NCBI GenBank assembly: GCA_963822585.1
Contig: CAWGIE010000045.1
Span: forward strand, 1,791 to 65,790
Direction: 5' to 3'
DNA length: 64,000 nucleotides
DNA from: an uncultured bacterium
GTDB taxonomy: Bacteria; Auribacterota; Erginobacteria; Erginobacterales; Erginobacteraceae
Within the stretch, counting starts at the first letter, position 1, and every line of letters begins with the position of its first letter. The notes under the pieces were generated by a model, which saw only the letters and a list, made by a program, of their open reading frames with translations, made no database searches and was not told where the DNA came from. Positions 1,950 through 63,604 of the stretch are shown piece by piece. The translations under genes were made by a program, and so were the position numbers.

Positions 1950-2023
1950 GCGCCCGTAGCTCAGATGGATAGAGCGCTTGCCTCCGGAGCAAGAGGTCGC
2001 GCGTTCGAATCGCGCCGGGCGTA
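1950..2023 (+). tRNA. tRNA-Arg (CCG), CCA not encoded
   Basis: Cloverleaf: acceptor GCGCCCG/CGGGCGT, D arm GCTC/GAGC, anticodon arm CTTGC-CTCCGGA-GCAAG, T arm GCGCG-TTCGAAT-CGCGC. Confidence 0.96.
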
Positions 2024-2117: not shown

Positions 2118-2226
2118 GGATAGAGCGCCCCGACACCTCCGGTGTCGGGGAGGTCGCGCGTTCTCAGCCGGAGGCTGATGCGCCTCCGGCGCAGAATCGC
2201 GCCGGGCGTATTGAAGCAGGGATAAG
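2118..2226 (+). pseudogene. Degenerate tandem copy of the tRNA-Arg 3' two-thirds plus downstream flank, with altered anticodon arm and a 30-bp insertion in the T loop
   Basis: GGATAGAGCG, AGGTCGCGCGTTC and GAATCGCGCCGGGCGTATTGAAGCAGGGATAAG are identical to parts of 1967-2039; the 5' acceptor strand is missing. Confidence 0.85.
2164..2193. mobile_element. 30-bp double-hairpin insertion element (copy 1)
   Basis: TCAGCC-GGA-GGCTGA + TGCGCC-TCC-GGCGCA splits the T loop TTC|GAAT relative to the intact tRNA. Confidence 0.8.
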
Positions 2227-5756: not shown

Positions 5757-5774
5757 TATATCACGGATAGAATA

Positions 5775-5868
5775 GTGGAGTAATGGAGTGATGGAGTGAT
5801 GGGATGCCGGCTCCGGCCTGAGGCGCGTAACCCAACACTCCACTACTCCCATACTCCATCACTCCCAT
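5775..5868. repeat. Fold-back repeat family A (TGGAGTRA tandem units plus reverse-complement arm); other copies at ~3793-3824, 6561-6658, 47388-47471, 58392-58569
   Basis: GTGGAGTAATGGAGTGATGGAGTGATGG ... CCAACACTCCACTACTCCCATACTCCATCACTCC. Confidence 0.85.
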
Positions 5869-5910
5869 TCATCCGCCCGAGGCGGAGCCGAGGGCTAAGG
5901 AGCAATCACC

Positions 5911-6519
5911 ATGGAAATAGTCGTGGCCAGTCATAATCAGGGCAAGGTGGCGGAATTAAGAAAGCTGCTGGAGCACCTTCCGGTCAAGATTTATTCGCTG
6001 GATGATTTCGAGATCATCCCGGAGGTGAAGGAGGACGGGGAGACCTACGCCGAGAACGCGCTTAAGAAAGCCCGCGCCGTCTACCAGGCGACGGGGAAGA
6101 TATCCCTGGCTGACGACTCCGGGCTGGAGGTGGACGCCCTGCAGGGCGAGCCCGGAGTGCGCTCGGCCCGGTACGGGGGTGAGGAACTCACCGATCACGA
6201 GAGGAACATGAAGCTCCTGGAGCGGATGGCGGACGTCCGGGATGAAGCCCGGGGCGCCACCTTCCAGTGCTGTCTGGCCATCATCGGGCCGAAAGGGATG
6301 GAGAAAATCGTCACCGGTTCCTGCCGGGGCACCATCACCCGCGCGCCCCAGGGGGGGAGCGGCTTCGGGTATGACCCGATCTTCCTCCCCTGTGAGTATA
6401 AGAACACCTTCGCGGAACTCTCCCCGGAGATCAAGAACCGGATCAGCCACCGCGCCCGGGCCCTGGAAAAGGCCGCCCTCTTTCTGGACGGGTACATCTA
6501 TTCCGAGACGCACCGGTGA
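5911..6519 (+). CDS. rdgB: Non-canonical purine NTP pyrophosphatase (RdgB/Ham1)
   Basis: ASHNQGK, ENALKKA, ADDSGL, PGVRSAR, GFGYDPIF, KNRISHR. Confidence 0.96.
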   Translation: MEIVVASHNQGKVAELRKLLEHLPVKIYSLDDFEIIPEVKEDGETYAENALKKARAVYQATGKISLADDSGLEVDALQGEPGVRSARYGGEELTDHERNMKLLERMADVRDEARGATFQCCLAIIGPKGMEKIVTGSCRGTITRAPQGGSGFGYDPIFLPCEYKNTFAELSPEIKNRISHRARALEKAALFLDGYIYSETHR

Positions 6520-6729
6520 GGGGGGGGAATTCCTTGCAAGACCCTTCGTGTGATTGTTCGGGAGTACTGGAGTAATGGAGTGTTGGAGTGATGGGCCCCC
6601 GGCTCACCGCCATTCCATCATTCCATCACTCCACCACTCCATCATTCCATCACTCCATGTTTGATTGACAGCCCGTGTTACTTTGTCTGAAACCATGTAT
6701 TTTCTGAGTCAATGCTCTGACACTCTGCC

Positions 6730-26498: not shown

Positions 26499-26532
26499 AA
26501 CGAGCACCCCTGGTGCAAGGTATTTCATTAAC

Positions 26533-26695
26533 GAAATTCCAAATAACAAATCCCAAATTACAAACAAATCTCAAATTCCAATGACCAAAATAACAAACGA
26601 CTGGTCCATATCTAGAGGTGTAGGCTGTCCGTTTTGGTCATTGGAATTTTGAATTTGTGATTTATTTGTTATTTGGTGCTTGGGATTTGGGATTT
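26533..26695. repeat. Fold-back repeat family F (AAATCCC/AAATTCC 7-mers); others at 52369-52616 and 60378-60613
   Basis: GAAATTCCAAATAACAAATCCCAAATTACAAACAAAT ... TTGGAATTTTGAATTTGTGATTTATTTGTTATTTGGTGCTTGGGATTTGGGATTT. Confidence 0.85.
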
Positions 26696-26712
26696 TTCTC
26701 AGGTGAATTGTT

Positions 26713-50995: not shown

Positions 50996-52396
50996 ATGGG
51001 AGATACACTATTTTTCCCCGAAGGGGGAAAAATACATTTTGTCGGCATCGGAGGCGTGGGAATGAGCGCGCTGGCCCAGCTCGCCCGCTGGCAGGGACGG
51101 GCGGTGAGCGGGTCCGACCGCTTCTTCGACCGGGGCGAGGCGCTCGACCTTCGCCGATGCCTGGAAGGGGAGGGGATCGTTATCTTTCCCCAGGACGGAT
51201 CGGGGGTGGAAAACGCCGCCGAAGCGGTGAGCTCGGCGGCGGTGGAGGCGGAGATACCCGATCTCCGGGCGGCGGTGAAGGCCGGGGTTCCGGTAACCGG
51301 CCGGGGCGAGTATCTTCTGCGTCTTTCCCGGGGACGGAAATCACTGGCGGTGGCCGGAACGAACGGCAAGTCCACCACATCCGCCCTCCTCAGCTGGATC
51401 TTGGCCGAAAACGGGTACGACCCCACCTTTGTCATCGGGGCTTCTCTGGCGAAGAAAGGGAGGGGGTGGGGGAATGCCCGGTCGGGGGAATCGGAGTGGT
51501 TCTGCTTCGAGGCGGATGAAAGCGACGGCGTCCTGGAACGGTATCTCCCCACCTATGGCGTGATCACCAACATCTCGCCGGATCACTTCGAGATCGAACG
51601 CCTGAGGGATATCTTCACCCGCTTCGCCGGGAACTGCCGGAAAGAGGTCGTGCTCAACGCCGACTGCCCGGAAAGCCGGCTGATCCGGACCGGGGTCGTT
51701 CCGTCGGTCACCTTCTCAATTCATTCTCCTTCCGATTTTCGCGCTCGGGAGATCGAGACCGGCCCCGGGAAATCATCTTTCACGGTCCGGGGTGAACGGT
51801 TTGATCTCCCCCTCCCGGGGATCCATAATGTCTATAACACTCTGGCCGCGCTCGCGGCTGTTTCCCTGGCCGGCCTGGCCCCGGCCCGCGCCGCGGCGGC
51901 AGTGGCTTCCTTTCCGGGGGTCAGGAGAAGGATGGAAATTGTTTATTCGTCGGCTGACCTGGTTGTGATTGATGATTACTCCCACAACCCGGCCAAGATC
52001 GCCGCCGCCCTGGAAGCGGCCCGGCTGTACGGCCTCCCGGTGACCGCGGTTTATCAGCCCCACGGTTTCGCCCCCCTGCGCCGGCTCCATCGCGAGCTGG
52101 CCGCCGCCTTTTCCCGAGGGCTTCGCTCCGGCGACCGGCTGTTGCTCCTCCCCGTCTATTATCCGGGCGGGACGGTGGAGACCGGCTTCGGCTCCGCCGA
52201 CCTGGCCGCCGAAATTACCGGGCCGGCGGCAGTGGGGGTTCAAGCGGACCAGGAGGGTGTTCTCTCCTCTCTCGGCCGGCCGGGCCGGGGGCTATTCCTG
52301 GTCATGGGCGCCCGCGACCCCGGGTTGAGCGCTCTCGCCCGCCGAATTTCCCGGCTGCTCGCCGGGGAAAAATCACAAATCCCAAATCCTAAATAA
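50996..52396 (+). CDS. MurC/Mpl-family ligase
   Basis: HFVGIGGVGMS.LA, SGSD, AGTNGKSTT, EADESDG, DH, HN, GVRRR, DDYSHNP, YQPH. Confidence 0.88.
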   Translation: MGDTLFFPEGGKIHFVGIGGVGMSALAQLARWQGRAVSGSDRFFDRGEALDLRRCLEGEGIVIFPQDGSGVENAAEAVSSAAVEAEIPDLRAAVKAGVPVTGRGEYLLRLSRGRKSLAVAGTNGKSTTSALLSWILAENGYDPTFVIGASLAKKGRGWGNARSGESEWFCFEADESDGVLERYLPTYGVITNISPDHFEIERLRDIFTRFAGNCRKEVVLNADCPESRLIRTGVVPSVTFSIHSPSDFRAREIETGPGKSSFTVRGERFDLPLPGIHNVYNTLAALAAVSLAGLAPARAAAAVASFPGVRRRMEIVYSSADLVVIDDYSHNPAKIAAALEAARLYGLPVTAVYQPHGFAPLRRLHRELAAAFSRGLRSGDRLLLLPVYYPGGTVETGFGSADLAAEITGPAAVGVQADQEGVLSSLGRPGRGLFLVMGARDPGLSALARRISRLLAGEKSQIPNPK

Positions 52397-52563
52397 CAAA
52401 CAAATCCCAAATCACAAATTCAAAATCACAAACTCACTCAGCACTTACAACCCCGAGCAAATTACGCCGGAGGTATTGACCTGCTACTTCGGATTTCGTC
52501 ATTAGTAGCGCCGCAGGCGCTAATTTATTTTGATTATTGTAATTTGTAATTTGTTTGTTATTT

Positions 52564-52593
52564 TCAGCCCGAGGCTGATCAGCCTTTGGCTGA
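52564..52593. mobile_element. 30-bp double-hairpin insertion element (copy 2)
   Basis: TCAGCC-CGA-GGCTGA + TCAGCC-TTT-GGCTGA splits GTTATTT|GGTGCTT, which is uninterrupted in the family F copy near 26668-26681. Confidence 0.8.
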
Positions 52594-52630
52594 GGTGCTT
52601 GTTATTTGGAATTTTAGTATCAATACCAGT

Positions 52631-54028
52631 ATGACTCAAACAAATAACCAGGTCAAAATAACCAGCTACAGAGAAGCTCTGGACTATCTGTACGGTCTTC
52701 GTCTTTTCGGGACCAAGCTGGGACTCCATAATATCCGCCGTCTTTTGGAACTCATGGGTGATCCCCACCGCGGCCTGGTTTTTTACCATATCGCGGGGAC
52801 GAACGGGAAAGGGTCGGTGGCGGCGCTGCTCCAGGGTTTGCTCCGGACTACCCACCGCCGGGTGGGCCTCTTCATTTCTCCCCATCTGGAGGATTTCCGG
52901 GAACGGATCCGGATCAATGACCGGCTGATAACACCCCGGGAAGTAGCCGCCGGGGTGAAAGAGATCCGGCCGTTGCTGGAGGTTGTTTCCCGGAGCCCGG
53001 GATGCTCGCACCCGACCTATTTCGAAGCCGTGACCGCGCTCGCCTGCGGATATTTCGCCGCCCGGAAGGTCGACGCTGTCGTCTGGGAAGTCGGGCTGGG
53101 GGGACGGCTGGACGCCACCAATGTGGTCAGACCCCGGGTCTCGGTTATCACCACGATCTCCCTTGAACACCAGAAATACTTGGGGAGAAGCATCGATTCG
53201 ATCGCCCGGGAGAAGGGCGGGATCATTAAAACCGGGATTCCTCTGGTGACGTCCGTGCGAAACCGGAAGGCTCTGTCGCGCTTGCGGCTGATCGCCCGGC
53301 GGAAGAAGGCCCCCCTGATCGAGGTCGACGCTCTCTATGAGGAAGAGGTTGCCGGACGGGGCCTGAAAGGGCAGTTGCTAACCGTCACGGGTCCCCGGCG
53401 CGTCTATCCCGGTATCTTTCTTCCGCTTCCGGGAGACCACCAGGTAAAGAACTGCGCCGCGGCATTCGCTGCCTGGGAGGTCTCCGATCCCCGCTCCGGC
53501 GATGTCGGGACGGCGCGGATCCGGCAGGCCATCCGGCGGGTCTCCTGGCCGGCCCGGTTTGAATTATTCCCCGGCTCGCCGGATGTTATACTGGACGGAG
53601 CGCATAACCGGTCCGGTGCCGCGGTCTGCGCGAAAACCATCCGGCAGCTGGTCCCCGGCCGCCCGGTTCTCCTTATTCTGGGAACACTGGCCGACAAGGA
53701 CGTCAACGCCCTCTGCCGTTCGCTGGTCCCCCTGGCCTGGAAAGTGATCGCCGTCCGGCCGGAGGGGGATCGCGGACTCGCCGCCGCCGACCTGGCCCGG
53801 GTCTGCCGCCGGTACGCGGGCCCGCGAAAAATCCCCGTGCTGACCCGTAAATCACTTGAGTCGGCCCTTGATTACTGCTACCGTATTTGTCTTCCCGGTC
53901 GGCCGGCCCCGGGATCGGGTCTGCCGCTGATCGTCATCACCGGGTCTCTCCGGTTGGTCGGCCCGGCCCGGAGCATGGTCAACAATAGAGTTCCTCTACC
54001 AGGTATTAAAAATGTGTCTCAACGGTAA
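52631..54028 (+). CDS. folC: Folylpolyglutamate synthase / dihydrofolate synthase
   Basis: HIAGTNGKGS, SPHL..FRERI, EVGLGGRLDATN, IAREKGGI.K, WPAR, LDGAHN, TGS. Confidence 0.95.
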   Translation: MTQTNNQVKITSYREALDYLYGLRLFGTKLGLHNIRRLLELMGDPHRGLVFYHIAGTNGKGSVAALLQGLLRTTHRRVGLFISPHLEDFRERIRINDRLITPREVAAGVKEIRPLLEVVSRSPGCSHPTYFEAVTALACGYFAARKVDAVVWEVGLGGRLDATNVVRPRVSVITTISLEHQKYLGRSIDSIAREKGGIIKTGIPLVTSVRNRKALSRLRLIARRKKAPLIEVDALYEEEVAGRGLKGQLLTVTGPRRVYPGIFLPLPGDHQVKNCAAAFAAWEVSDPRSGDVGTARIRQAIRRVSWPARFELFPGSPDVILDGAHNRSGAAVCAKTIRQLVPGRPVLLILGTLADKDVNALCRSLVPLAWKVIAVRPEGDRGLAAADLARVCRRYAGPRKIPVLTRKSLESALDYCYRICLPGRPAPGSGLPLIVITGSLRLVGPARSMVNNRVPLPGIKNVSQR

Positions 54029-54133
54029 TGTGTATCGCCAGGTCATTGCGGGGCTCGCAATGACGATCTCGGATTAGCGTAATCTATATTTTGCTCTCCT
54101 GATTAATAAACGATTTCAGGTGGTTACAGAGGT

Positions 54134-55309
54134 ATGACCCGGAAACAGACAACCGCGATCGTCAACGCGCTCATTCTCCGCCCCGGATTCCCTCCCGTCC
54201 GCGGCGGCGTTCTGATCTCCGCCGGCCGGATCGAGCGCCTTTTCCCGGAAGGCGTGGCCGCCCCTGATTTTGTCGCCGAAGTCATTGACGCCCGGGGGAA
54301 TTACCTTGCCCCCGGTTTTATCGATCTCCACGTCCATGGAGGGGGAGGGGATGATTTTAACGATGATGACGGCCGTAAGACCGTAAAGATCGTCAACTTT
54401 CTGGCCCGTTTCGGGACCACATCCGTCCTTCCCACCATCGCCACCCCTTCCCGGACTCATTTGCTGGAGACCGTTGCCCGGATCGCTTCCCTGTGTAAAA
54501 GCAGGAAAGTTGGCGATCGGGTACTGGGGATCAATCTGGAAGGACCGTATATCAGCATCGGGAAGCGGGGGGCCCAGCCCCTTCGATTCATCAGGAACCC
54601 CTCGAAAACGGAGGTCGCGGAACTTCTGGAAGCGGCCGACGGCGCCATCAAGATAATGACCGTGGCCCCGGAGGTTCGCGGGGCGATCTCCCTGATCAAG
54701 CTGCTCAAACGATCCGGCGTCATCCCCGCGATCGGCCATACCATCGCCGATTACGATACCACCCGTTCGGCGATCCGGGCCGGCCTCTCCTATGTCACCC
54801 ATATATTCAACAGCTATCCCCCTCTGCACCACCGTCAACCGGGGGCGATCGGTGCCATCCTGGAATCCGATCGTCTGAACGTCGAAATCCTTTGTGACGG
54901 AGTACACCTGTCACCGGTGATCGTCCGGCTGATCGCCCGCCTGAAGCCGCTGGAGAAGCTTCTCCTGGTCACCGACGGCATCGCGGTTCTGGGGCGGCGG
55001 GTCAAGAAGTTCACCATGGGCGGCCGGGAAGTGATAGTGGATAAGAATGAGGCCCGCCTCCCGGACGGGACCCTGGTCGGCAGCATGGTACCGATGAATC
55101 ACGCGCTGAACAATTTTATGCGGTTCACCGGTTGCCCTCTCCCTGACGCTCTTTTTCTGGCCACCGCTAACCCGGCCCGTCTACTTGGTCTCGAAGACAG
55201 GAAAGGGGACATCCGTCACGGCATGGACGCCGATCTGGTCATCATGGACAAGCACTGCATGGTGAAGCGGACAATCATCGCCGGGGAGACGGTGTACCGC
55301 AAATCCTGA
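54134..55309 (+). CDS. nagA: N-acetylglucosamine-6-phosphate deacetylase
   Basis: PGFIDLHVHG, LEGPY, TVAPE, GHT, THIFN, DGVH, VTDG, NPA. Confidence 0.93.
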   Translation: MTRKQTTAIVNALILRPGFPPVRGGVLISAGRIERLFPEGVAAPDFVAEVIDARGNYLAPGFIDLHVHGGGGDDFNDDDGRKTVKIVNFLARFGTTSVLPTIATPSRTHLLETVARIASLCKSRKVGDRVLGINLEGPYISIGKRGAQPLRFIRNPSKTEVAELLEAADGAIKIMTVAPEVRGAISLIKLLKRSGVIPAIGHTIADYDTTRSAIRAGLSYVTHIFNSYPPLHHRQPGAIGAILESDRLNVEILCDGVHLSPVIVRLIARLKPLEKLLLVTDGIAVLGRRVKKFTMGGREVIVDKNEARLPDGTLVGSMVPMNHALNNFMRFTGCPLPDALFLATANPARLLGLEDRKGDIRHGMDADLVIMDKHCMVKRTIIAGETVYRKS

Positions 55310-55383
55310 AAGTGAACCTTGCACATTCATTCGGATTTCGTCATTAGCAGCGCCGAAGGCACTGTATTCTCCTCCTCCCGGGA

Positions 55384-55412
55384 TTGAAATCGGGCGAGAG
55401 AGATGGTATTAT
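55384..55412 (+). promoter_or_regulatory. Sigma-70-type promoter upstream of the CsgG-like gene
   Basis: TTGAAA-N17-TATTAT with extended -10 TG. Confidence 0.5.
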
Positions 55413-55596
55413 TACTATTTCGGAATTTCGAAAACGTAGAAAAAACAGATAATCACCACGAAGAACACGAAGTACACGAAGAAAGATAGGAAAAATATCA
55501 TGCTTATTTTATTCTCCCCGATTTCCTTCGTGACCTTCGTGTCCTTCGTGGTTAAAAGATGCGCCGCAGGCGCTCATTAATAACGGGAGGGATGAT

Positions 55597-56511
55597 ATGA
55601 GTTCATTGGGAAGGAAGGGATGCGTGTTGTTAGGAGTTCTCCTGGCGGCGGGATGTCTGCTGTCGGCGTCTGGCGCTCAAGCCGCGCCCAAGAAGACGAT
55701 CGCCGTCTCCGAGTTCGATAACAAATCGGGCTGGAGCGGCAGCTGGAAGATCGGCTGGGGGATGCAGGAGATGATGGCCACCGCTCTGGTCGACACCGGT
55801 AAGTTCACGGTGCTGGAACGTCAGGATCTCGACGCTATCATGGCTGAACAGGACCTTGGCGCCAGCGGCCGGACCGGTGAAGGCTCCGCGGCGGCGATCG
55901 GCAAGCTGGGGAAAGCCCAGATCCTGATCTCGGGGGCGGTTACCGAGTTCGAGGAAAAGAAGGGCGGTGAGGGCGCCGGGATCGGATTTAAAGGTTTCCG
56001 GATCGGCGGCAGTCATGAACAGGCCCACGTGGCGATCAACGTCCGGATCTATGACACCAGCAGCGGCGAGGTCCTCGACTCCATCCGGGTGGAAGGCGCG
56101 GCCGATGCCGGCGGCCTCAAGCTCGGCTACAGCAACGCCGATTTCGGGGGCGACCTGGGCGGTTTCCGGAAGACCCCCCTGGGCGAAGCCACCCAGCAGG
56201 CCATTGACGAGGCCGTCCAGAAGATAGCCTCCCGGCTGAAAAGCGTCCCCTGGCAGGGGAAACTGATCAAGGCCACCCCTTCCAAGGTGTATCTCAACGC
56301 CGGCAGCGAGGGGGGGGTCAGCGACGGGATGGAGTTCGATGTTTACCGCCAGGGGGAAGCCCTGGTCGATCCCGACACCGGGATGACGCTGGGGGCGGAA
56401 ACGGAGAAGGTCGGCCGGATTAAAGTCACCGATGTCAAAGATAAGTTCTCCATCGCCTCCGTCGTCTCCGGTTCCGACATGCAGCGGGGCGATCTGGTAA
56501 AATCCGAATAA
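55597..56511 (+). CDS. CsgG/HfaB-family protein with an FlgT-like C-terminal domain
   Basis: Signal peptide; IAV..F.NKS, L..TGKF.VLER..L..I..EQ, G.VTEF; C-terminal VYLNAGS..GV..G. Confidence 0.8.
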   Translation: MSSLGRKGCVLLGVLLAAGCLLSASGAQAAPKKTIAVSEFDNKSGWSGSWKIGWGMQEMMATALVDTGKFTVLERQDLDAIMAEQDLGASGRTGEGSAAAIGKLGKAQILISGAVTEFEEKKGGEGAGIGFKGFRIGGSHEQAHVAINVRIYDTSSGEVLDSIRVEGAADAGGLKLGYSNADFGGDLGGFRKTPLGEATQQAIDEAVQKIASRLKSVPWQGKLIKATPSKVYLNAGSEGGVSDGMEFDVYRQGEALVDPDTGMTLGAETEKVGRIKVTDVKDKFSIASVVSGSDMQRGDLVKSE

Positions 56512-56742
56512 ATGTTCCGCTGGTTCCTCAAGCTTGTTCTGATCCTGCTGGCGGCAGCCCTCCTTTACGGGTTATGGCTGCTCTACCAGGATAAACCCCC
56601 GGAAGAAAAGCAGCAGATCCGGGAGGGAATGGTCCGGACCGTCAAAGACGCGGGCCGGACCGTGGCCGAGGCCGGGCGCCGGGTGGTGAAGAAGGGGCAG
56701 CAGATGTTGCAAAAAGGAGAGGAAGGGGAGAAAGAAGAGTAG
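56512..56742 (+). CDS. Small single-pass membrane protein
   Basis: ATG abuts the upstream stop; N-terminal TM helix and charged tail. Confidence 0.6.
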   Translation: MFRWFLKLVLILLAAALLYGLWLLYQDKPPEEKQQIREGMVRTVKDAGRTVAEAGRRVVKKGQQMLQKGEEGEKEE

Positions 56743-57014
56743 GGTGACGAGGTTTGCGCCGCTTTTAAGTGGAATAACGATAAATGACTAAATCCGAATG
56801 TCGAATGTCGAAAGAATGACAAAGCACCTCCGCCCAAGCGGCTTCGGCGCTCTCGCGAAGGCGGATGACGAAATGTGCTCCGGTCGGCCGAAGCGTGCCG
56901 CCGAAAGGGAGATGGGGAATTCAGTCATTTGACAGTGGGATTTCATTCGGATTTCGTCATTCGGATTTGGTCATTTAGAATCCGGGATAAATTCCCCGAA
57001 TTCTTGAATTCATC

Positions 57015-58361
57015 ATGCCTTCTCTTATCCCAGCCGCCCGCAGGTTCTACCTCCGCACCTTCGGCTGCCAGATGAACCGGCATGACTCGGAACGGATCGC
57101 CGGTATGCTGGAAGCCCGGGGTTGGCGCCGCTCCCGGAACGCGGAGAAGGCGGACCTGATCCTCCTCAATACCTGCAGCGTCCGCGATCACGCGGAAGCG
57201 CGGGTCCTGGGTCGACTGGAGGCCTATCGCCGGGAAAAGAAAAAGCGCCCCCAGGTGGCGATAGGCGTGCTCGGCTGCATGGCCCAGGTACGGGGAGAGC
57301 TGCTCCGGGATCGGTTTCCGGAGCTGGATCTGATACTGGGACCCGGGTGTTTCGGCCGTCTCCCCGCCGAAGCGGCCGCCGCTCTATCCGGATCCGGTCC
57401 CCGGGTGGCCGACTCTTTCGACCCGGACGGGAATTTTTTCCGCGGCCCTTGCCTCCGGGAGAACTCCCTCTGCGCCTGGGTCACCGTGATGCGGGGATGC
57501 GACAATTTCTGCTCCTATTGCGTGGTCCCCTTTGCCCGGGGTCGGGAGATAAGCCGCTCTCCCGACGAAATCGTCGAAGAGGTCAGGTCGCTGGGGGAGG
57601 GGGGATACCGGGAGATCACCCTCCTCGGCCAGAATGTCAATTCCTACCGGGGGATGAGTCTTTCCGGGTCCGGCGTGGACTTTCCCGGGCTGCTGCGCCG
57701 GGTAAACGCTGTTTCCGGGATCGATCGGATCCGCTTCATCACTTCCCATCCGAAGGACATTTCCCCGGACCTGATCAGGGCGATCGGGGAATTGGAGAAG
57801 GTCTGCGAATCCCTGCACTTCCCCGCTCAGTCCGGTTCCGACGCCGTGCTTGAAAAAATGAGGCGGGGATACACCAGAGACGAATACCTGGCCAAGGCGC
57901 GGAGCCTGCGGGAGGCGGTCCCGGACATTTCTCTTGCTTCCGATTTTATCGTCGGTTTCCCGGGGGAGACCGATGCCGACTTCACCCGGACGCTGGACCT
58001 GGTCCGGGAAGTCCGTTTTGAGAGGATTTTCGCTTTCGCCTATTCTCCCCGGCCGAAGACGGCCGCAGCCGCTTTCCCCGACGATGTCCCCCCGGAGGTG
58101 AAAGCCGCCCGGCTACAGGAACTGCTGGCTCTCCAGAAGACGATATCCGGAGGGAAGAATCGGGAGTTGATCGGGAAAACCGTGGAAGTTCTGGTCGAGG
58201 GAAGGAACCGGAAATACGGCGACCGGGCGGAGGGAAGGACCCGGGGTGGGCAGATGGTCTTCTTCCCCTGGGAGGAAGGGATAAAAGGGGAGATCGTCCC
58301 GGTCCGGGTCGAACGGGCCACGGAGGCGAGTTTGTTTGGTAATCGGGTGGATGGTAATTAA
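57015..58361 (+). CDS. miaB: tRNA-i6A37 methylthiotransferase
   Basis: TFGCQMN.HDSE, NTCSVR, GCMAQ, GCDNFCSYCVVP, LLGQNVNSY, TSHP, IVGFPGET, TRAM domain. Confidence 0.96.
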   Translation: MPSLIPAARRFYLRTFGCQMNRHDSERIAGMLEARGWRRSRNAEKADLILLNTCSVRDHAEARVLGRLEAYRREKKKRPQVAIGVLGCMAQVRGELLRDRFPELDLILGPGCFGRLPAEAAAALSGSGPRVADSFDPDGNFFRGPCLRENSLCAWVTVMRGCDNFCSYCVVPFARGREISRSPDEIVEEVRSLGEGGYREITLLGQNVNSYRGMSLSGSGVDFPGLLRRVNAVSGIDRIRFITSHPKDISPDLIRAIGELEKVCESLHFPAQSGSDAVLEKMRRGYTRDEYLAKARSLREAVPDISLASDFIVGFPGETDADFTRTLDLVREVRFERIFAFAYSPRPKTAAAAFPDDVPPEVKAARLQELLALQKTISGGKNRELIGKTVEVLVEGRNRKYGDRAEGRTRGGQMVFFPWEEGIKGEIVPVRVERATEASLFGNRVDGN

Positions 58362-58594
58362 TGGTAATGTACTGTTATACCGGTCAGAGAGGGAATAATG
58401 GAGTGCTGGAGTGTTGGAGTATTGGAGTAATGGAAGCCGGGCCCCCACCATTTCATTACTCCATCACTCCAGGTTACTAAGTATCGGACACGATAACTTT
58501 TTCGGGTTTACTATATATCGGGTAATTACGCACTTCAACACTCCACTACTCCATCATTCCATTACTCCAGCTTCATTATCCCAACCATGCCTGT

Positions 58595-60367
58595 TTGTCA
58601 AGAAAGATTAAAAAACACGCCCTGATCCCGATCTGGCGCCGCCCCTGGCTGCTGGCGGCGGCCGTGCTTCTGGTCTACGCCAACTCCTGGAGCAACCCCT
58701 TCATCCTCGATGACGCGACTCACATTCTCCAGAATCGGCGGATCGGGGAATGGAAAAACTGGACGGAGATTTTTCGGGAGCCGTTCTTCCTCTTCCCGGA
58801 GGCCGGACTTGCTCAGTATTACCGCCCCCTGACCAAGCTGACCTACAAGGTGGAGTGGCTTCTTTTCGGGGATCGCCCCTTCGGCTACCACCTGGTCAAT
58901 ACTCTCCTCCACGCCCTCAACACGATCCTCCTCTACCTGGTCTGCCGGCGCTTGGGCGCGCGGGCGCGACCGGCTTTCCTGGCCGCGCTTATCTTCGGTA
59001 TCCACCCGCTCCAGACCGAAGAGGTGAGCTACATCTCCGGGCTGGGCGGTCTCGCTTCCGTTTCCGGGATTCTGGCCTCACTCTATTGTTTGATCGGGTT
59101 TTTGAAAAAGCGGCGGTTCGCCTGGTACTTCTCATCCATTTTCTTTTTTCTCATCGGGCTTCTTTACAAGGAAGTCGCCCTGCTGGCCCCGGTACTGCTG
59201 GTCTGGATGGCGTTGACGGCCCTCCCCTCCGGTGAGGAAGATCGTCTTCGCGGTCCGGCGCTGGCCGGATATATCCTTCCGTTTTTCCTGCTTGCCGGCG
59301 GTTACCTGGTCCTGCGTTCCTTCTTCCTGGTCCGGACCGACTTCACGGCCGGTCTCACCGGCGGCCTCTGGCTCCGGTTTTTGACCTTCGGAAAAGGGAT
59401 CTGGATCTACCTGGGGCTGGCGCTCTTCCCGTTTGGGCTCCATTTTTACCGATCCCTGGCGCTGCTCTCTCATGGCTGGCATTTCCTGCCGCTTCTGCTC
59501 CTGGGCGGATGCGCCCTCGGCCTGGCCCGGAGTATTCGCCCCCCCGGGCGCCCGACTTCTCTCTTCGCCTTCGGGTTCGGCAGCTTCCTGATCGGCCTCC
59601 TCCCCTTTTCCGGGGTCAACCCCATTTTCCTGGAAAGGGGATTCCTTTACTGGGGGGAACACTTCATGTATCTCCCCCTGGCCGGTCTGGGAATGGTCCT
59701 GGCGGCCGCCTTTAACTGCCGGAGAAAATACCCCGGTGCCGGTCCGGCCCGGATCTGCCTGGCTCTGATTATCTGTGTCATGGCTTTTCTCACTGTCCGT
59801 CAGAATACATTCTGGTCCGACGAGACGGCCTTTTTCGAGAGGATGGTCAGGTACGAATCGAATCTTTTCCGGACCGCCGGGCTGCTGGGGATCGCCTATT
59901 ACAAGGAAGGGCGGATTGAAGAGGCGGTGGCGGCGGATCTCCGCGCCCGGAAAATCCTTATTGACCGGAATGCCGTCTCTTCCGGGAAAGAATTGCCTCC
60001 GATGGACAGGTATCAGTTGAAGATCATCCTCTGGCGGGTGTCGCAGGGCTTCCGGAGCCTGCGCCGGTACGGCGAGGCCGAGGAGGCGGCCCGGGAACTG
60101 CTGGAGATTACTCCGGAAGGGTATGAAGGACGCTATCTGCTCGGCCGCGCCCTCCTGGCCGCCGGCGACGTGAAGGGAGCCCGGCCCTACCTGGAGGAGG
60201 CGTACCGGTTGCAACCGGATAACTTTGAGGTCGCCCGGGCGCTGATCGTCTGCTACCGGCGGCTGGGAGAGGATAAGCGGGCCCAGGCGGTATGGAGTGC
60301 GGCCTCCCGGCGGATCCCCGCATTCCGCCAGGCCCGGGATATCTTGAAGCAGCGATATCAAAAATGA
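58595..60367 (+). CDS. Second TMTC-like membrane glycosyltransferase with TPRs
   Basis: F.LDD, YYRPL, GYH.VN..LH, HPLQTEEV.YIS, KE, EHFMYLP, TPRs; TTG start is uncertain. Confidence 0.78.
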   Translation: MSRKIKKHALIPIWRRPWLLAAAVLLVYANSWSNPFILDDATHILQNRRIGEWKNWTEIFREPFFLFPEAGLAQYYRPLTKLTYKVEWLLFGDRPFGYHLVNTLLHALNTILLYLVCRRLGARARPAFLAALIFGIHPLQTEEVSYISGLGGLASVSGILASLYCLIGFLKKRRFAWYFSSIFFFLIGLLYKEVALLAPVLLVWMALTALPSGEEDRLRGPALAGYILPFFLLAGGYLVLRSFFLVRTDFTAGLTGGLWLRFLTFGKGIWIYLGLALFPFGLHFYRSLALLSHGWHFLPLLLLGGCALGLARSIRPPGRPTSLFAFGFGSFLIGLLPFSGVNPIFLERGFLYWGEHFMYLPLAGLGMVLAAAFNCRRKYPGAGPARICLALIICVMAFLTVRQNTFWSDETAFFERMVRYESNLFRTAGLLGIAYYKEGRIEEAVAADLRARKILIDRNAVSSGKELPPMDRYQLKIILWRVSQGFRSLRRYGEAEEAARELLEITPEGYEGRYLLGRALLAAGDVKGARPYLEEAYRLQPDNFEVARALIVCYRRLGEDKRAQAVWSAASRRIPAFRQARDILKQRYQK

Positions 60368-60678
60368 TATGCTTGCAAAAATCCTAAATCCTAATTTCTA
60401 AATCCTAAATAAATGCAAAATTAAAAATCCAAATGCACAAAATGATCACCCCTTGGGCAGTGCAAAGGGAACAGGTCTATCTATAATATCTGAGACGGCT
60501 TTTCCTCCCTCCAATTCGTTTCGAAGAATCCGCCTTGATGTGCTGCCGGTGGAGGTTTCGGTCATTTGGATTTGAATATTGTTTAGGATTTAGATATTAG
60601 GATTTAGGATTTGTTCCTTGAAGATTCTCTATACCGAAACGTGAGAACTTTCATCCAGAAAAATATAATATATGACTG

Positions 60679-63278
60679 ATGAGTAAGCTCACACCCATGA
60701 TGAAGCAGTACCGGGCGCTGAAAGCGTCGGTCAGGGACGCGATCCTTCTCTTCCGGCTCGGTGATTTTTACGAGATGTTCGGCGAAGACGCGAAGATCGC
60801 GGCCCCCATCCTGGAGATCGCCCTCACCGCCCGCCACACCACCCCCATGTGCGGGATACCTCATCATGCCGCCTCCGGTTATATCGCCCGACTGCTCAAA
60901 GCGGGTAAGAAAGTCGCCGTCTGCGAACAGGTGGAAGACCCCCGACAGGCCAAAGGCATCGTCAAGCGCGACATCATCCGGATCATCACCCCGGGCACGG
61001 CGGTCGAGGAGGAACTATTGAAGAGCTCCGCCTCCAATTACCTGGCGGCGGTCCATCAGATGGGCCAGGTCTACGGGTTCGCCTATATCGAGCTCTCCAC
61101 CGGCGAGTTCAAGGCGGCCGAACTGTCATCCCGGGACGCCCTCCGGAACGAACTGGAACGGGTCAGCCCCAGCGAATGCCTGGTCTCGGGCACTCTGGCC
61201 CCCCGGCTGAAGGACCTGCTTTCCTTTCTGCCGGAGACGGTCCTCACCCCTCTCGAGGATTGGTTTTTCGATTACGACCTGGCCTACGCCGCCCTGAAAA
61301 AGCAGTTCGGAACGGCCAGCCTGGACGGATTCGGCTGCCAGCAGATGATACCCGGGATCGGGGCCGCCGGGGCGATCATCGGCTACGTCGGCGAGAATCT
61401 GCGATCATCGCTCTCCCATGTTCATTCCCTCTCCGTCTTTTCCCCGGCCGCGTTCATGGTGATGGACGCCGTCTCCCAGCGCAACCTGGAGATCATCGAG
61501 CCCCTGCGGGGGGGCGACCGTTCCGCCACCCTGATCGGGGTCCTCGATCGGACGGTGACTTCAATGGGGAGCCGGACCCTGCGGACCTGGTTGCTCCAGC
61601 CCCTGCTCGATCCGAAAGAGATCGAGAAAAGGCTTGATGGCGTCGAGGAACTGACGTCCCGCCGGGACGCCCTGGCGGATATCCGCCAGGGCCTGAAAGG
61701 GATCCGGGATATCGGGAGGATCATGGGGCGGGTCGCCTGCGGACGGACCAACGCCCGCGAGCTGGCCGGGCTTCGGGAATCGCTTTCTTCCCTCCCCCCC
61801 TCCGGGAGGCGCTCGGGGTTCTGGAGTCCTCCCTCCCGCGGGCGGCGGCGGCGGATCTCGAGGTCACACCGGAGCTGGGCGCCCTCTTGGAAAAATCCCT
61901 GGTTGATAATCCTCCCCTCGCCCTCAAGGAGGGGGGGATGATCAGGAGCGGTTACCACCCGCCCCTCGATGAACTGCACGCGCTGGCCCGGGACGGGAAA
62001 AACTGGATCAGCCGTTTCCAGGAAGAGGAGATCGCCCGCACCGGGATCAAGTCGCTGAAGGTCCGGCATAACAAGGTCTTCGGATATTACATCGAAGTCA
62101 CCCGCCCGAACCTTCCTCAGGTCCCGGAGAACTACCTGCCCAAGCAGACCCTGGTCAACGCGGAGCGGTTCATAACAGAAGAGCTGAAGAACTATGAGAA
62201 CAAGGTCCTGGGGGCCCAGGAAAAAGCGGCGGCACTGGAATACCGGCTCTTCGAGGAGATCAGGGAGGAGGTGAAAAAAGAAACCACCGCGGTCCAGCGC
62301 TGCGCCCGGGCGGTGGGGGTGATCGACGCGCTCTCCGCTCTGGCGGAGGTTGCCGTCGGCAATCGGTATGTCCGGCCGTCCGTCGATTCCTCCGACCGAC
62401 TGGAGATCGTGAATGGACGGCACCCGGTGATCGAGCGGATACTGGTGGATGAGCGCTTCGTGGGGAACGACACTTTCATGGACGGGGAAGAGAACCAGAT
62501 CGCCATCATTACCGGCCCCAATATGGCGGGCAAATCCACCTATATCCGGCAGGTTGCCCTGATCGTGCTCATGGCCCAGGTGGGAAGCTTCGTCCCCGCC
62601 GACTCGGCCCGGATCGGGGTGGCGGACCGGATATTTACCCGGGTGGGCGCTTCCGACGAACTGGCCCGGGGCCAGTCCACCTTCATGGTGGAGATGATCG
62701 AGACGGCGAATATTCTCCACCACGCGACCCCCCGCAGCCTGGTCGTTCTCGATGAGATCGGCCGGGGTACCAGCACTTTTGACGGAATCAGTATCGCCTG
62801 GGCGGTGGCCGAGTATCTTCACGATCACCCGGCCTCCCGGGCCCGGACCCTCTTCGCTACCCATTATCACGAGCTGACCGAACTGGAGCTGACGCTCCGG
62901 GGAGTGAAAAACTACAACGTGGCGGTGAGGGAATGGAACGACGAAGTGATCTTCCTGAGAAAAGTGCTTCGCGGCGGCACCGACAAGAGCTACGGGATCC
63001 AGGTGGCCCGGCTGGCCGGTCTGCCCCGCGCGGTCATTGAACGGGCCCGGATCATCCTGACCAACCTGGAGGATGAATCTCTCTCCGCTGACGGGCTGCC
63101 GAAGTTCGCCGGCTCCCCCGGGGGCAGGGATCCGGGCGTCGGCCGGCAGCTCTATCTTTTCGAGACGTCGACTCACCCGGTCCTGGCCGAGCTGAAAAAT
63201 ATCAATCTCGACCACCTGACGCCTTTCGAAGCCATGCAGCGCTTGCGGTCGATGAAAGACCGGGTGTTGGAAGATTGA
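60679..63278 (+). pseudogene. mutS: DNA mismatch repair protein MutS with an apparent 1-nt frameshift in C7 at 61794-61800
   Basis: N half TPMMKQY..GDFYE.F; C half ITGPNMAGKST, STFMVEM, DEIGRGT, ATHYHEL, SYGIQVA; adding one C joins the two frames. Confidence 0.93.
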
Positions 63279-63574: not shown

Positions 63575-63604
63575 TCCGCCGGAGGCGGATCAGCCTCTGG
63601 CTGA
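63575..63604. mobile_element. 30-bp double-hairpin insertion element (copy 3)
   Basis: TCCGCC-GGA-GGCGGA + TCAGCC-TCT-GGCTGA inside an ACTTTAG(G/A)CACTT tandem repeat. Confidence 0.75.

Follow-up and report, generated by a model that had tools for sequence, protein, structure and literature searches.

A 30-nt twin hairpin occurs three times in a 64,000-nt stretch of DNA (hereafter the window) on contig C45 of the assembly G000, from an uncultured bacterium of the Erginobacteraceae (Auribacterota), and we show here that this 30-mer enters DNA exactly, as a single unit and without duplication or loss of target bases, and that it has done so many times independently in G000 and in many phyla. 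The 30-mer is a real and strongly supported tiny non-autonomous mobile element, whose mechanism of movement we infer from sequence, and it is very probably an independently inserting unit. The best explanation overall, and on balance a probable one, is that this tiny non-autonomous element is recognised by its hairpins and moved in trans; a single-strand cut-and-rejoin route is the one that we favour, though only tentatively.

Exact entry of a 30-nt unit

The unit pattern TSMGCCNNNGGCKSA matches seven times in the window, where 0.20 matches are expected, and none of 100 shuffles reaches that number; six of the matches form three doublets and the seventh stands alone (Table 1). The three doublets of 15 + 15 nt are all found where the first-pass annotation of this DNA had placed them, and its claim that two of them have an empty counterpart inside the window, with nothing duplicated or lost, holds as well. 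In the tRNA-Arg pair (site 2006|2007 against 2163|2194) the flanks are identical over 14 nt on the left and 33 nt on the right with exactly 30 nt between them, and in the AT-rich repeat pair (26674|26675 against 52563|52594) 10 and 8 identical nt flank the insert.

The whole assembly (4.51 Mb in 48 contigs, 56% G+C, 89% complete, 7.8% contaminated) contains 171 matches to the unit pattern, which allows mismatched combinations, and 158 of them have perfectly complementary stems. The genome-wide scan for doublets suggested in the first-pass annotation, run in a slightly relaxed form, found 66. For each of them, 30 nt of left flank were joined to 30 nt of right flank and searched against the genome, and at least one gap-free match, that is, an empty site, was obtained for 43 of the 66, with up to 69 for one repeat family (23 for copy 2 of the window and 20 for copy 3). 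When lone units were treated in the same way, empty sites were found for only 3 of 45, and none in the genome for the lone unit of the window. The comparison indicates that what inserts is the 30-nt doublet and not the 15-nt hairpin. Furthermore, the doublets of G000 lie in at least 15 unrelated flank contexts according to single-linkage clustering, which over-merges, so that their number, the empty sites and the insertion in rsmA described below bear out the view of the 30-mer as an independent, exactly inserting unit. At site 52564, orthologous intergenic comparison with G001, G003 and G004 found either that the whole host repeat is absent or that the contig ends there. Reads from three runs, in which 12-13% of the sampled words of window positions 52000-61999 were present, showed no join skipping either 30-mer at a coverage too thin for filled and empty alleles.

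Insertion into unique DNA was found in G044, a Patescibacteria genome of 0.4 Mb with several 30-mers inside open frames, one of them in rsmA. The encoded protein (P0001) has 10 extra residues (IFNNF-PPKADQPMAE-NISERA) that are absent in all 39 of its closest homologues (P0002-P0040), with no other gap at that place. In the DNA, exactly 30 nt are missing in all nine aligned orthologous metagenome loci, which are the nine best matched to the query among 80 related loci. The closest of them, L178, reads ...GATTT|AAATATTTCAG where G044 has ...AATTT, the 30 nt and then AAATATTTCAG (the junction in L178 is also given as ...GATTT|AAATATTT), and removal of the insert from G044 rsmA leaves the codon TTA (Leu), as in the homologues. 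The rsmA copy is therefore a clean insertion in unique conserved DNA with no surrounding repeat.

Other phyla offered 101 evaluable sites, 28 of which lie in long open frames (against 1282 of 2020 random positions). Twenty of these 28 coding sites are in the frame S-A-x-G-G-S-A-x-G-G, and 20 have the TCCGCC/TCCGCC form, which is stop-free in every frame. Removal of the insert places 29 sites in a long frame, and 27 of them are still open with the insert in place, suggesting that coding copies are read through rather than spliced out and that selection filters the copies that survive. In-frame insertions (30 nt being 10 codons) had been proposed as a check on the element, and both the rsmA copy and these open frames answer to it; we have thus shown that in gene-dense genomes the 30-mer survives in coding sequence as an in-frame block of 10 codons.

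These coding copies bear directly on the possibility that the 30-mer is only a passenger, spreading with larger repeats or by gene conversion, while its stems are perfected by template-switch correction of quasi-palindromes. Most copies in G000 do sit in repeat families whose empty members far outnumber the filled ones, the two units keep the same order throughout a given host repeat family, and 9 of 10 copies at tRNA sites have the same orientation, which conversion through GGTTC...GAATCC flanks could yield. However, a passenger would not be expected to enter a unique conserved gene cleanly with no repeat around it, to lie within long open frames at more than a quarter of the evaluable sites in other genomes, or to appear as the same 30-mer in unrelated flank contexts across phyla. 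This explanation is already contradicted for the coding-sequence copies at least, and we regard it as very improbable in general.

The strict doublet pattern is found 47 times in G000 and 53 times in a genome of the same genus. Genomes from two other genera of the family hold 44 and 4 copies of it, and three genomes further away in the phylum hold 11, 3 and 1. In all, 7 of 41 genomes of the phylum have the pattern and 34 lack it, and a reversed-pattern control gave no match in any of the 41. A scan of one genome per species yielded at least 119 matching stretches, where our own arithmetic (2^-40 per position over 596 Gb, at equal base frequencies) predicts about 0.5 chance hits. Among the 80 matches listed by title there are many Patescibacteria lineages, Omnitrophota, Kiritimatiellae, Verrucomicrobiota, Lentisphaerae, Ignavibacteriota, Bacteroidota, Gammaproteobacteria, Binatia, Thermodesulfobacteriota, a Prosthecochloris record and a Woesearchaeota archaeon, and 79 of these titles are labelled as metagenome-assembled. 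One of the records, from the 'PVC group' (L081), shares its host repeat with copy 3 of the window. Five carrier genomes reached through these loci hold 43, 53, 7, 23 and 16 copies in 4.1, 1.4, 1.0, 0.4 and 1.9 Mb, respectively. The doublet pattern is also matched by 14 viral contigs, and a single 50-nt query of the TCCGCC/TCCGCC form only found no match among 72,556 plasmids and 50,697 phage records.

In G000 itself the doublets are largely intergenic, with 3 of 66 within long frames compared to 709 of 1000 random positions, and they form stable hairpins, as would a selected cis-acting signal (a terminator, an RNA stabiliser or a site bound by a protein) whose recurrence would be due to its usefulness rather than to movement. 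Such a signal would have no plausible role within genes, in frame, or in dead tRNA fragments, and its patchy presence among relatives (the 7 of 41 given above) is hard to reconcile with general usefulness. Moreover, the flanks are T-rich upstream and A-rich downstream, the opposite of an intrinsic terminator, and no Rfam family matches the window copies. We therefore give this alternative very little credence, and retain movement of the 30-mer as the cause of its dispersal.

Table 1. Copies of the twin hairpin, related hairpins, empty sites and tRNA sequences in the window
Feature	Position	Strand	Description
tRNA-Arg(CCG), intact	1950..2023	+	Only tRNA in the window; T loop TTC 2004-2006 | GAAT 2007-2010 is the empty site for copy 1
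Partial tRNA-Arg(CCG) copy	2118..2226	+	From the D arm to 16 nt beyond the 3' end; 30-mer at TTC|GAAT
Twin hairpin, copy 1	2164..2193	.	TCAGCC-GGA-GGCTGA + TGCGCC-TCC-GGCGCA; host is the T loop of the partial tRNA-Arg copy
Lone 15-nt unit	5872..5886	.	TCCGCC-CGA-GGCGGA; from the pattern scan
AT-rich repeat family, empty site	26660..26689	.	GTTATTT|GGTGCTT; junction 26674|26675
Twin hairpin, copy 2	52564..52593	.	TCAGCC-CGA-GGCTGA + TCAGCC-TTT-GGCTGA; host is an AT-rich dispersed repeat
Other repeat family, empty site	56784..56805	.	ATGACTAAATCC|GAATG; junction 56795|56796
Hairpin with TCCGCC/GGCGGA outer stem	56829..56865	.	25-nt interior; outside the unit pattern
Twin hairpin, copy 3	63575..63604	.	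TCCGCC-GGA-GGCGGA + TCAGCC-TCT-GGCTGA; host is the 'GTGCCTAAAGTT' repeat family

Two further hairpins of the window had been proposed as relatives of the doublets. The lone unit matches the pattern, whereas the expanded hairpin at 56829 shares the outer stem and does not match it, and is at most a putative relative of the family. The repeat family with the empty site at 56784 has a doublet-bearing member at contig C7:224513, and an ATG at 52631 lies 37 nt downstream of copy 2. The window is also rich, for instance at 5770-5870 and 26530-26700, in short tandem and inverted repeats, AT-rich or of the 'GGAGTGATGGAGT' type, which make up long imperfect palindromes round intergenic regions; repeats of these types are the hosts into which the 30-mer lands.

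Anatomy, target and tRNA-derived sites

The anatomy of the element was taken from 136 sites in loci of other genomes. It consists of two abutting 15-nt hairpins, in each of which a 6-bp stem, T-S-M-G-C-C, closes a loop of 3 nt, and both stems are perfect at 135 of the 136 sites by means of four alternative stem dinucleotides. Together with the perfectly complementary stems of most matches in G000, this confirms the stem covariation that had been noticed in the window. When folded as single-stranded DNA, copies 2 and 3 of the window have the twin hairpin as their minimum-energy structure (-10.1 and -11.3 kcal/mol, z about -4), and the copy at 2164, with complementary loops, prefers one 9-bp hairpin (-12 kcal/mol). 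A preference for a target, which had been put forward as a further check, was found in the flanks: the left one has T in 54%, T in 81% (-2) and Y in 83% (-1), and the right one R in 83% (+1), A in 75% (+2) and A in 53%, so that the preferred target is the short palindrome TTY|RAA. The two loop bases proximal to the centre are complementary at 127 of the 136 sites and the loops are fully complementary at 18. The 30-mer is therefore dyad-symmetric in outline, yet exactness is kept for pairing within each 15-mer.

This dyad outline, present in both element and target, is what a duplex-DNA route would use, with the 30-mer as a dif/lox-like site (12-bp inverted arms and a 6-bp centre) on which a dimeric recombinase or integrase acts at a TTY|RAA centre. 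The complementary centre-adjacent loop positions would fit this route, and so would the partial tRNA copies described below, with which the element is linked and which end at tRNA loops, resembling integrase attachment-site remnants. However, duplex recognition does not need the covariation of stem with stem within each 15-mer, the loops are fully complementary at only 18 of the 136 sites, and no recombinase gene recurs beside the copies (histidine kinases and FG-GAP proteins do). In addition, recombinases are not known to produce a central blunt insertion without duplication. We consider the duplex route unlikely.

A doublet variant is found in some copies of the family with the host site 'GGAATTT|CAATAA' (for example C30:7840 and C39:2748), in which an 18-nt hairpin, CCCCGAT-NNNN-ATCGGGG, stands in place of one unit beside a TGCGCC unit, and this suggests that the arms can be swapped. 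Many other hairpins in G000 share a GCC-NNN-GGC or CC-NNN-GG cap, for example at 52509-52523 of the window. These capped hairpins (among them, with copy numbers, AGCGCC...GGCGCT, 75; TTTTCC...GGAAAA, 102; AATGCC, 51; CTTGCC, 34) are mainly the tips of longer stems in other repeat families.

Sequences derived from tRNAs are a recurrent host of the 30-mer. ARAGORN recognises 46 tRNAs in G000, 16 of them with extra copies of the 3' tail within 1 kb, and the 30-mer lies at TTC|GAA in partial copies of nine parents (Thr-tgt, Gly-tcc, Ile-gat, Leu-cag, Ser-cga, Pro-tgg, Pro-ggg, Leu-gag and Arg-ccg; a Ser-gga row, consisting of the same copies as Ser-cga, was excluded). Some of the partial copies that carry the 30-mer form tandem arrays of 2-5 while the adjoining intact gene is empty, and a full-length tRNA-Ser copy that has the insert is 350 nt away from the intact one. 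The tRNA-Arg locus of G001, a genome of the same genus, lacks the partial copy. Partial tRNAs with the 30-mer adjoin intact tRNA genes in other phyla too, and there the insert is in the D loop (L028, L034), the anticodon loop (L106) or the T loop (L116).

Insertions in all three loops of tRNA-derived sequences, in several phyla, could point to a spread mediated by RNA, in which reverse splicing or ligation would bring the twin hairpin into loops exposed on transcripts, and reverse transcription and recombination would fix it in DNA. Insertions are also present in transcribed genes, no target duplication is seen, and an RNA route has been proposed for the Allomyces elements that lack flanking duplications (PMC2800124). 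Against this, the symmetry of both strands is not required by RNA spread, and no loop context is predicted at many sites, the rsmA codon TT|A among them. Furthermore, RVT_1 was not found in G042 (53 copies) or in G044 (23 copies in 0.4 Mb), two assemblies of which the completeness is not known. Spread through RNA is thus, in our opinion, improbable, and single-strand movement of DNA guided by the hairpins is preferred.

Three other features of these tRNA sequences were seen. In the partial tRNA-Arg copy of the window a perfect 10-bp hairpin (2128-2150) takes the place of the 5-bp anticodon stem and keeps the CCTCCGG loop core, which looks like templated hairpin growth rather than drift. In an Ignavibacteriaceae record (L088, about 6500-6620) a tRNA-Ser(GGA)-like sequence, with no intact copy within 150 nt, is recognised by ARAGORN only after the removal of a 30-mer from its D loop and may be a disrupted or a partial tRNA. 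A second motif, ...GAGCGAA(C/G)GAAGT(G/A)AGT..., adjoins the T-loop break of partial Thr-cgt, Met-cat and Ser-gct copies (C19:150955, C35:112859 and C19:511361) and is present, reverse-complemented, beside the end of a partial tRNA-Pro in the Patescibacteria locus L028 (about 6200-6300). This motif is possibly one end of a further widespread element with tRNAs as its targets.

Route of movement and search for an enzyme

Since the stems co-vary inside each unit, and little constraint is seen on the loops, the machinery that moves the 30-mer would recognise hairpins. The enzyme would act in trans and be encoded elsewhere. The route that we favour would be a single-strand, hairpin-guided cutting and rejoining of the IS200/IS605 'peel and paste' kind, leaving donor and target without duplications, and the excised 30-nt circle could fold into a 12-bp dumbbell capped by two triloops. 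The IS200/IS605-type single-strand route, of a family present in bacteria and archaea, creates no target duplication and leaves the donor without a scar, and we favour this kind of route because it is the known one with both properties.

Several findings weigh against this reading. The loops follow a rule (N-R-A in the first, T-Y-N in the second) under which both strands read alike, which is not the case for known IS200/IS605 ends, and no cognate TnpA-Y1 with element ends that match the 30-mer was found. No covariation between flanks and loops that would hint at a guide sequence was detected, so that the idea of loops pairing with flanks has no support from this check. G000 also has 45 T-arm-like hairpins (a 5-bp stem and a TTCRANT loop) without insert; they rule out a saturation of T loops, and they indicate that site preference alone does not account for why the element uses almost only partial tRNA copies that lie next to their parent gene. 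This bias may have arisen because insertions in functional tRNAs are selected against, because the partial copies are what is left of integrase attachment sites, or because insertion and duplication are coupled.

The remaining points on this side concern the enzyme, since no mobilising enzyme was identified either near the copies or by the presence of a family in the carriers. Y1_Tnp genes, IS200-like and including RAYT-like ones (one is fused to a DnaA-type helix-turn-helix), occur in nine places in G000. No perfect unit lies within 3 kb of any of the nine, although an imperfect match to the pattern is present about 1.5 kb from the Y1 gene of C35, and none of eight Y1 genes in the carriers G041, G042 and G045 has a GCC-NNN-GGC hairpin unit within about 2 kb, so that the RAYT/TnpA-Y1 genes flanked by the same hairpins that the first-pass annotation had suggested looking for were not found. 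Four of the nine genes (both C31 copies, C35 and C23) have their own REP-like hairpin repeats in tandem on their flanks, and two further ones (C33 and C36:323 kb) have inverted repeats of their own there. Y1_Tnp is present in 36 of the 41 genomes of the phylum, carriers or not, and a repeat-free Y1 of 251 aa is missing in the carrier G001 and present in the non-carriers G009, G031 and G039. Across carrier phyla, moreover, Y1 proteins have an identity of about 37% at most, though the 30-mer is nearly the same everywhere. The link to HUH/Y1 (RAYT) enzymes proposed in the first-pass annotation is thus unsupported so far: Y1 genes are not adjacent to the 30-mer, they come with other repeats, and their presence does not separate carriers from non-carriers. 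Because both strands and the target are symmetric and a Y1 association is lacking, we hold the HUH/Y1 route, and with it the single-strand mechanism of the IS200/IS605 kind, as a tentative and rather doubtful proposal.

Of five transposase or reverse-transcriptase families tested, Y1_Tnp is the only one present in G042 (1.4 Mb, 53 copies), where both Y1 proteins have the HUH motif, and this profile gives weak support to a Y1 enzyme. In G000, G001, G041, G042 and G044, Y2_Tnp was found in two of the five genomes and RVT_1 and IS110 in three each, none of these being in all carriers, and the TnpB zinc ribbon was found in none of the five carriers G041-G045. The families that recur within 1.2 kb of the G000 doublets are hybrid histidine kinases and FG-GAP or beta-helix surface proteins, with no nuclease or recombinase among them, which agrees with the earlier statement that no enzyme is encoded beside the 30-mer. 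An autonomous copy, with a gene between a left and a right unit, was also considered and rejected, as the apparent lone units of G044 are doublets with CCCGCC, TTCGCC or CCAGCC as the partner stem.

Two other kinds of loci were observed in this search. The Y1 (RAYT-like) genes at C31:802-2285, C31:10343-11826, C35:201975-203113 and C23:61227-62701 stand with their own repeats, for example GTTGAACCCCGTTGGGGTTC and CACAGACATTCCTGTCTGTG, and are classical REP-RAYT arrangements, several per genome. A 1.74-kb repeat with an IS110-type transposase gene is present in two copies that are 99.4% identical (C7:246711-248452 and C17:104716-106455), and about 310 nt inside one of its ends there is a T-arm half with a single TGCGCC unit (GCGGGTTC-unit-CATCCAG); an IS110-type insertion sequence may have landed in the middle of a twin hairpin. 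IS110 was rejected as the mover, given that this repeat has a unit near one end only and that IS110 was not found in the carriers G042 and G044.

Known systems and meaning of the element

The closest description that we found is that of the double-hairpin elements (DHEs) of fungal mitochondria, in Allomyces, Schizosaccharomyces octosporus and S. osmophilus, which are short, G+C-rich, made of two stem-loops, scattered in intergenic regions and RNA genes, thought to be mobile, without flanking duplications and of unknown mechanism (PMC10085805, PMC2800124). The 30-mer is likewise short, G+C-rich, dispersed, built of two stem-loops and free of flanking duplications. However, DHEs are reported in these accounts only from mitochondria, whereas the 30-mer occurs in the chromosomes of bacteria and archaea from many phyla, has a fixed length of 30 nt with T-S-M-GCC-NNN-GGC-K-S-A twice, and uses a defined TTY|RAA site; the likeness drawn here is one of description. 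The GC clusters of yeast mitochondria (such as GC42) are described in a comparable way as short, palindromic, G+C-rich and mobile, with changes concentrated in the loops and a debated DNA or RNA route, but they carry a putative AG target-site duplication, of which the 30-mer has none (PMC4478555).

Among bacterial repeats, the repetitive extragenic palindromes (REPs) have a GTAG or CGTC tag (PMC3733652), are associated with RAYT genes, are frequently doublets and are held to be mobilised in trans by an HUH-Y1 protein that binds hairpins (PMC3116915, PMC6006769). Like REP, BIME and REPIN sequences, the 30-mer is a short, palindromic, dispersed repeat in doublets, but, compared with the REPs so described, its units begin with T-S-M-GCC, end with GGC-K-S-A and lack the tag. 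Nor is any RAYT gene flanked by its units, and its hairpins abut instead of forming one long REPIN hairpin. With respect to the extragenic location of REPs, 3 of 66 copies of the 30-mer lie in long frames in G000 and 28 of 101 in other phyla.

The palindromic elements of Rickettsia, reportedly described by Ogata et al. in 2000, are said to measure about 100-150 bp and to belong to one genus, whereas the 30-mer has 30 nt, or 10 codons, and occurs in many phyla. The insertion sequences IS608 and ISDra2 have terminal hairpins, make no target duplication and reseal the donor precisely, so that filled and empty sites differ by the exact element. The 30-mer resembles IS200/IS605 derivatives in its hairpins at both ends and in the lack of target duplication, but these elements differ between strands, enter 3' of a specific tetra- or pentanucleotide that a guide sequence reads, and require tens of bases beyond each hairpin. 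The closest bacterial case is that of the small dispersed repeats (SDRs) of Nostoc. As reportedly set out by Elhai et al. in 2008, the SDRs of Nostoc/Anabaena comprise eight families of 21-27 nt, proposed to be mobile and often placed inside larger repeats. They belong to another lineage and reportedly have other sequences, and the spread across phyla, the coding insertions and the tRNA-loop sites shown for the 30-mer are not known for them. The description of SDRs is backed in part by citing text in PMC2884548, and the absence of duplication and the resealing of the donor in IS200/IS605 are summarised in PMC6006769.

Text searches of the literature and six typical 15-mers brought up no description of the 30-mer in bacterial or archaeal chromosomes, though supplements, which these searches did not cover, may hold such sequences. 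The earlier suggestion of an undescribed system stands in so far as no prokaryotic description was found, and has to be qualified by the very similar DHEs known from fungal mitochondria (PMC2800124, PMC10085805). In these terms the 30-mer is a prokaryotic double-hairpin element.

Finally, we would propose, as a speculation that goes well beyond the insertions themselves, that the 30-mer could be the smallest self-contained transposable unit known in prokaryotes, crossing phyla and domains and moved by an enzyme class, or a shared structure-specific activity of the host, not yet tied to transposition. It would write linkers of 10 residues into proteins, mark tRNA-derived sequences, and be a counterpart, and possibly an ancestor, of the mitochondrial DHEs. 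If true, the minimum size of mobile DNA in bacteria and archaea would have to be lowered, and the 30-mer, as a defined substrate of 30 nt, could serve as bait for a new transposition activity that recognises hairpins. The mechanism of DHEs has been open since their first description in the 1990s, and the 30-mer would offer a tractable prokaryotic parallel. Seamless insertion at a 6-bp site could also interest genome engineers. For the uncultured lineages that carry it, the 30-mer explains small in-frame insertions in proteins (S-A-x-G-G-S-A-x-G-G and related ones) and draws attention to one cause of breaks in assemblies and of tRNA fragments that are annotated wrongly.

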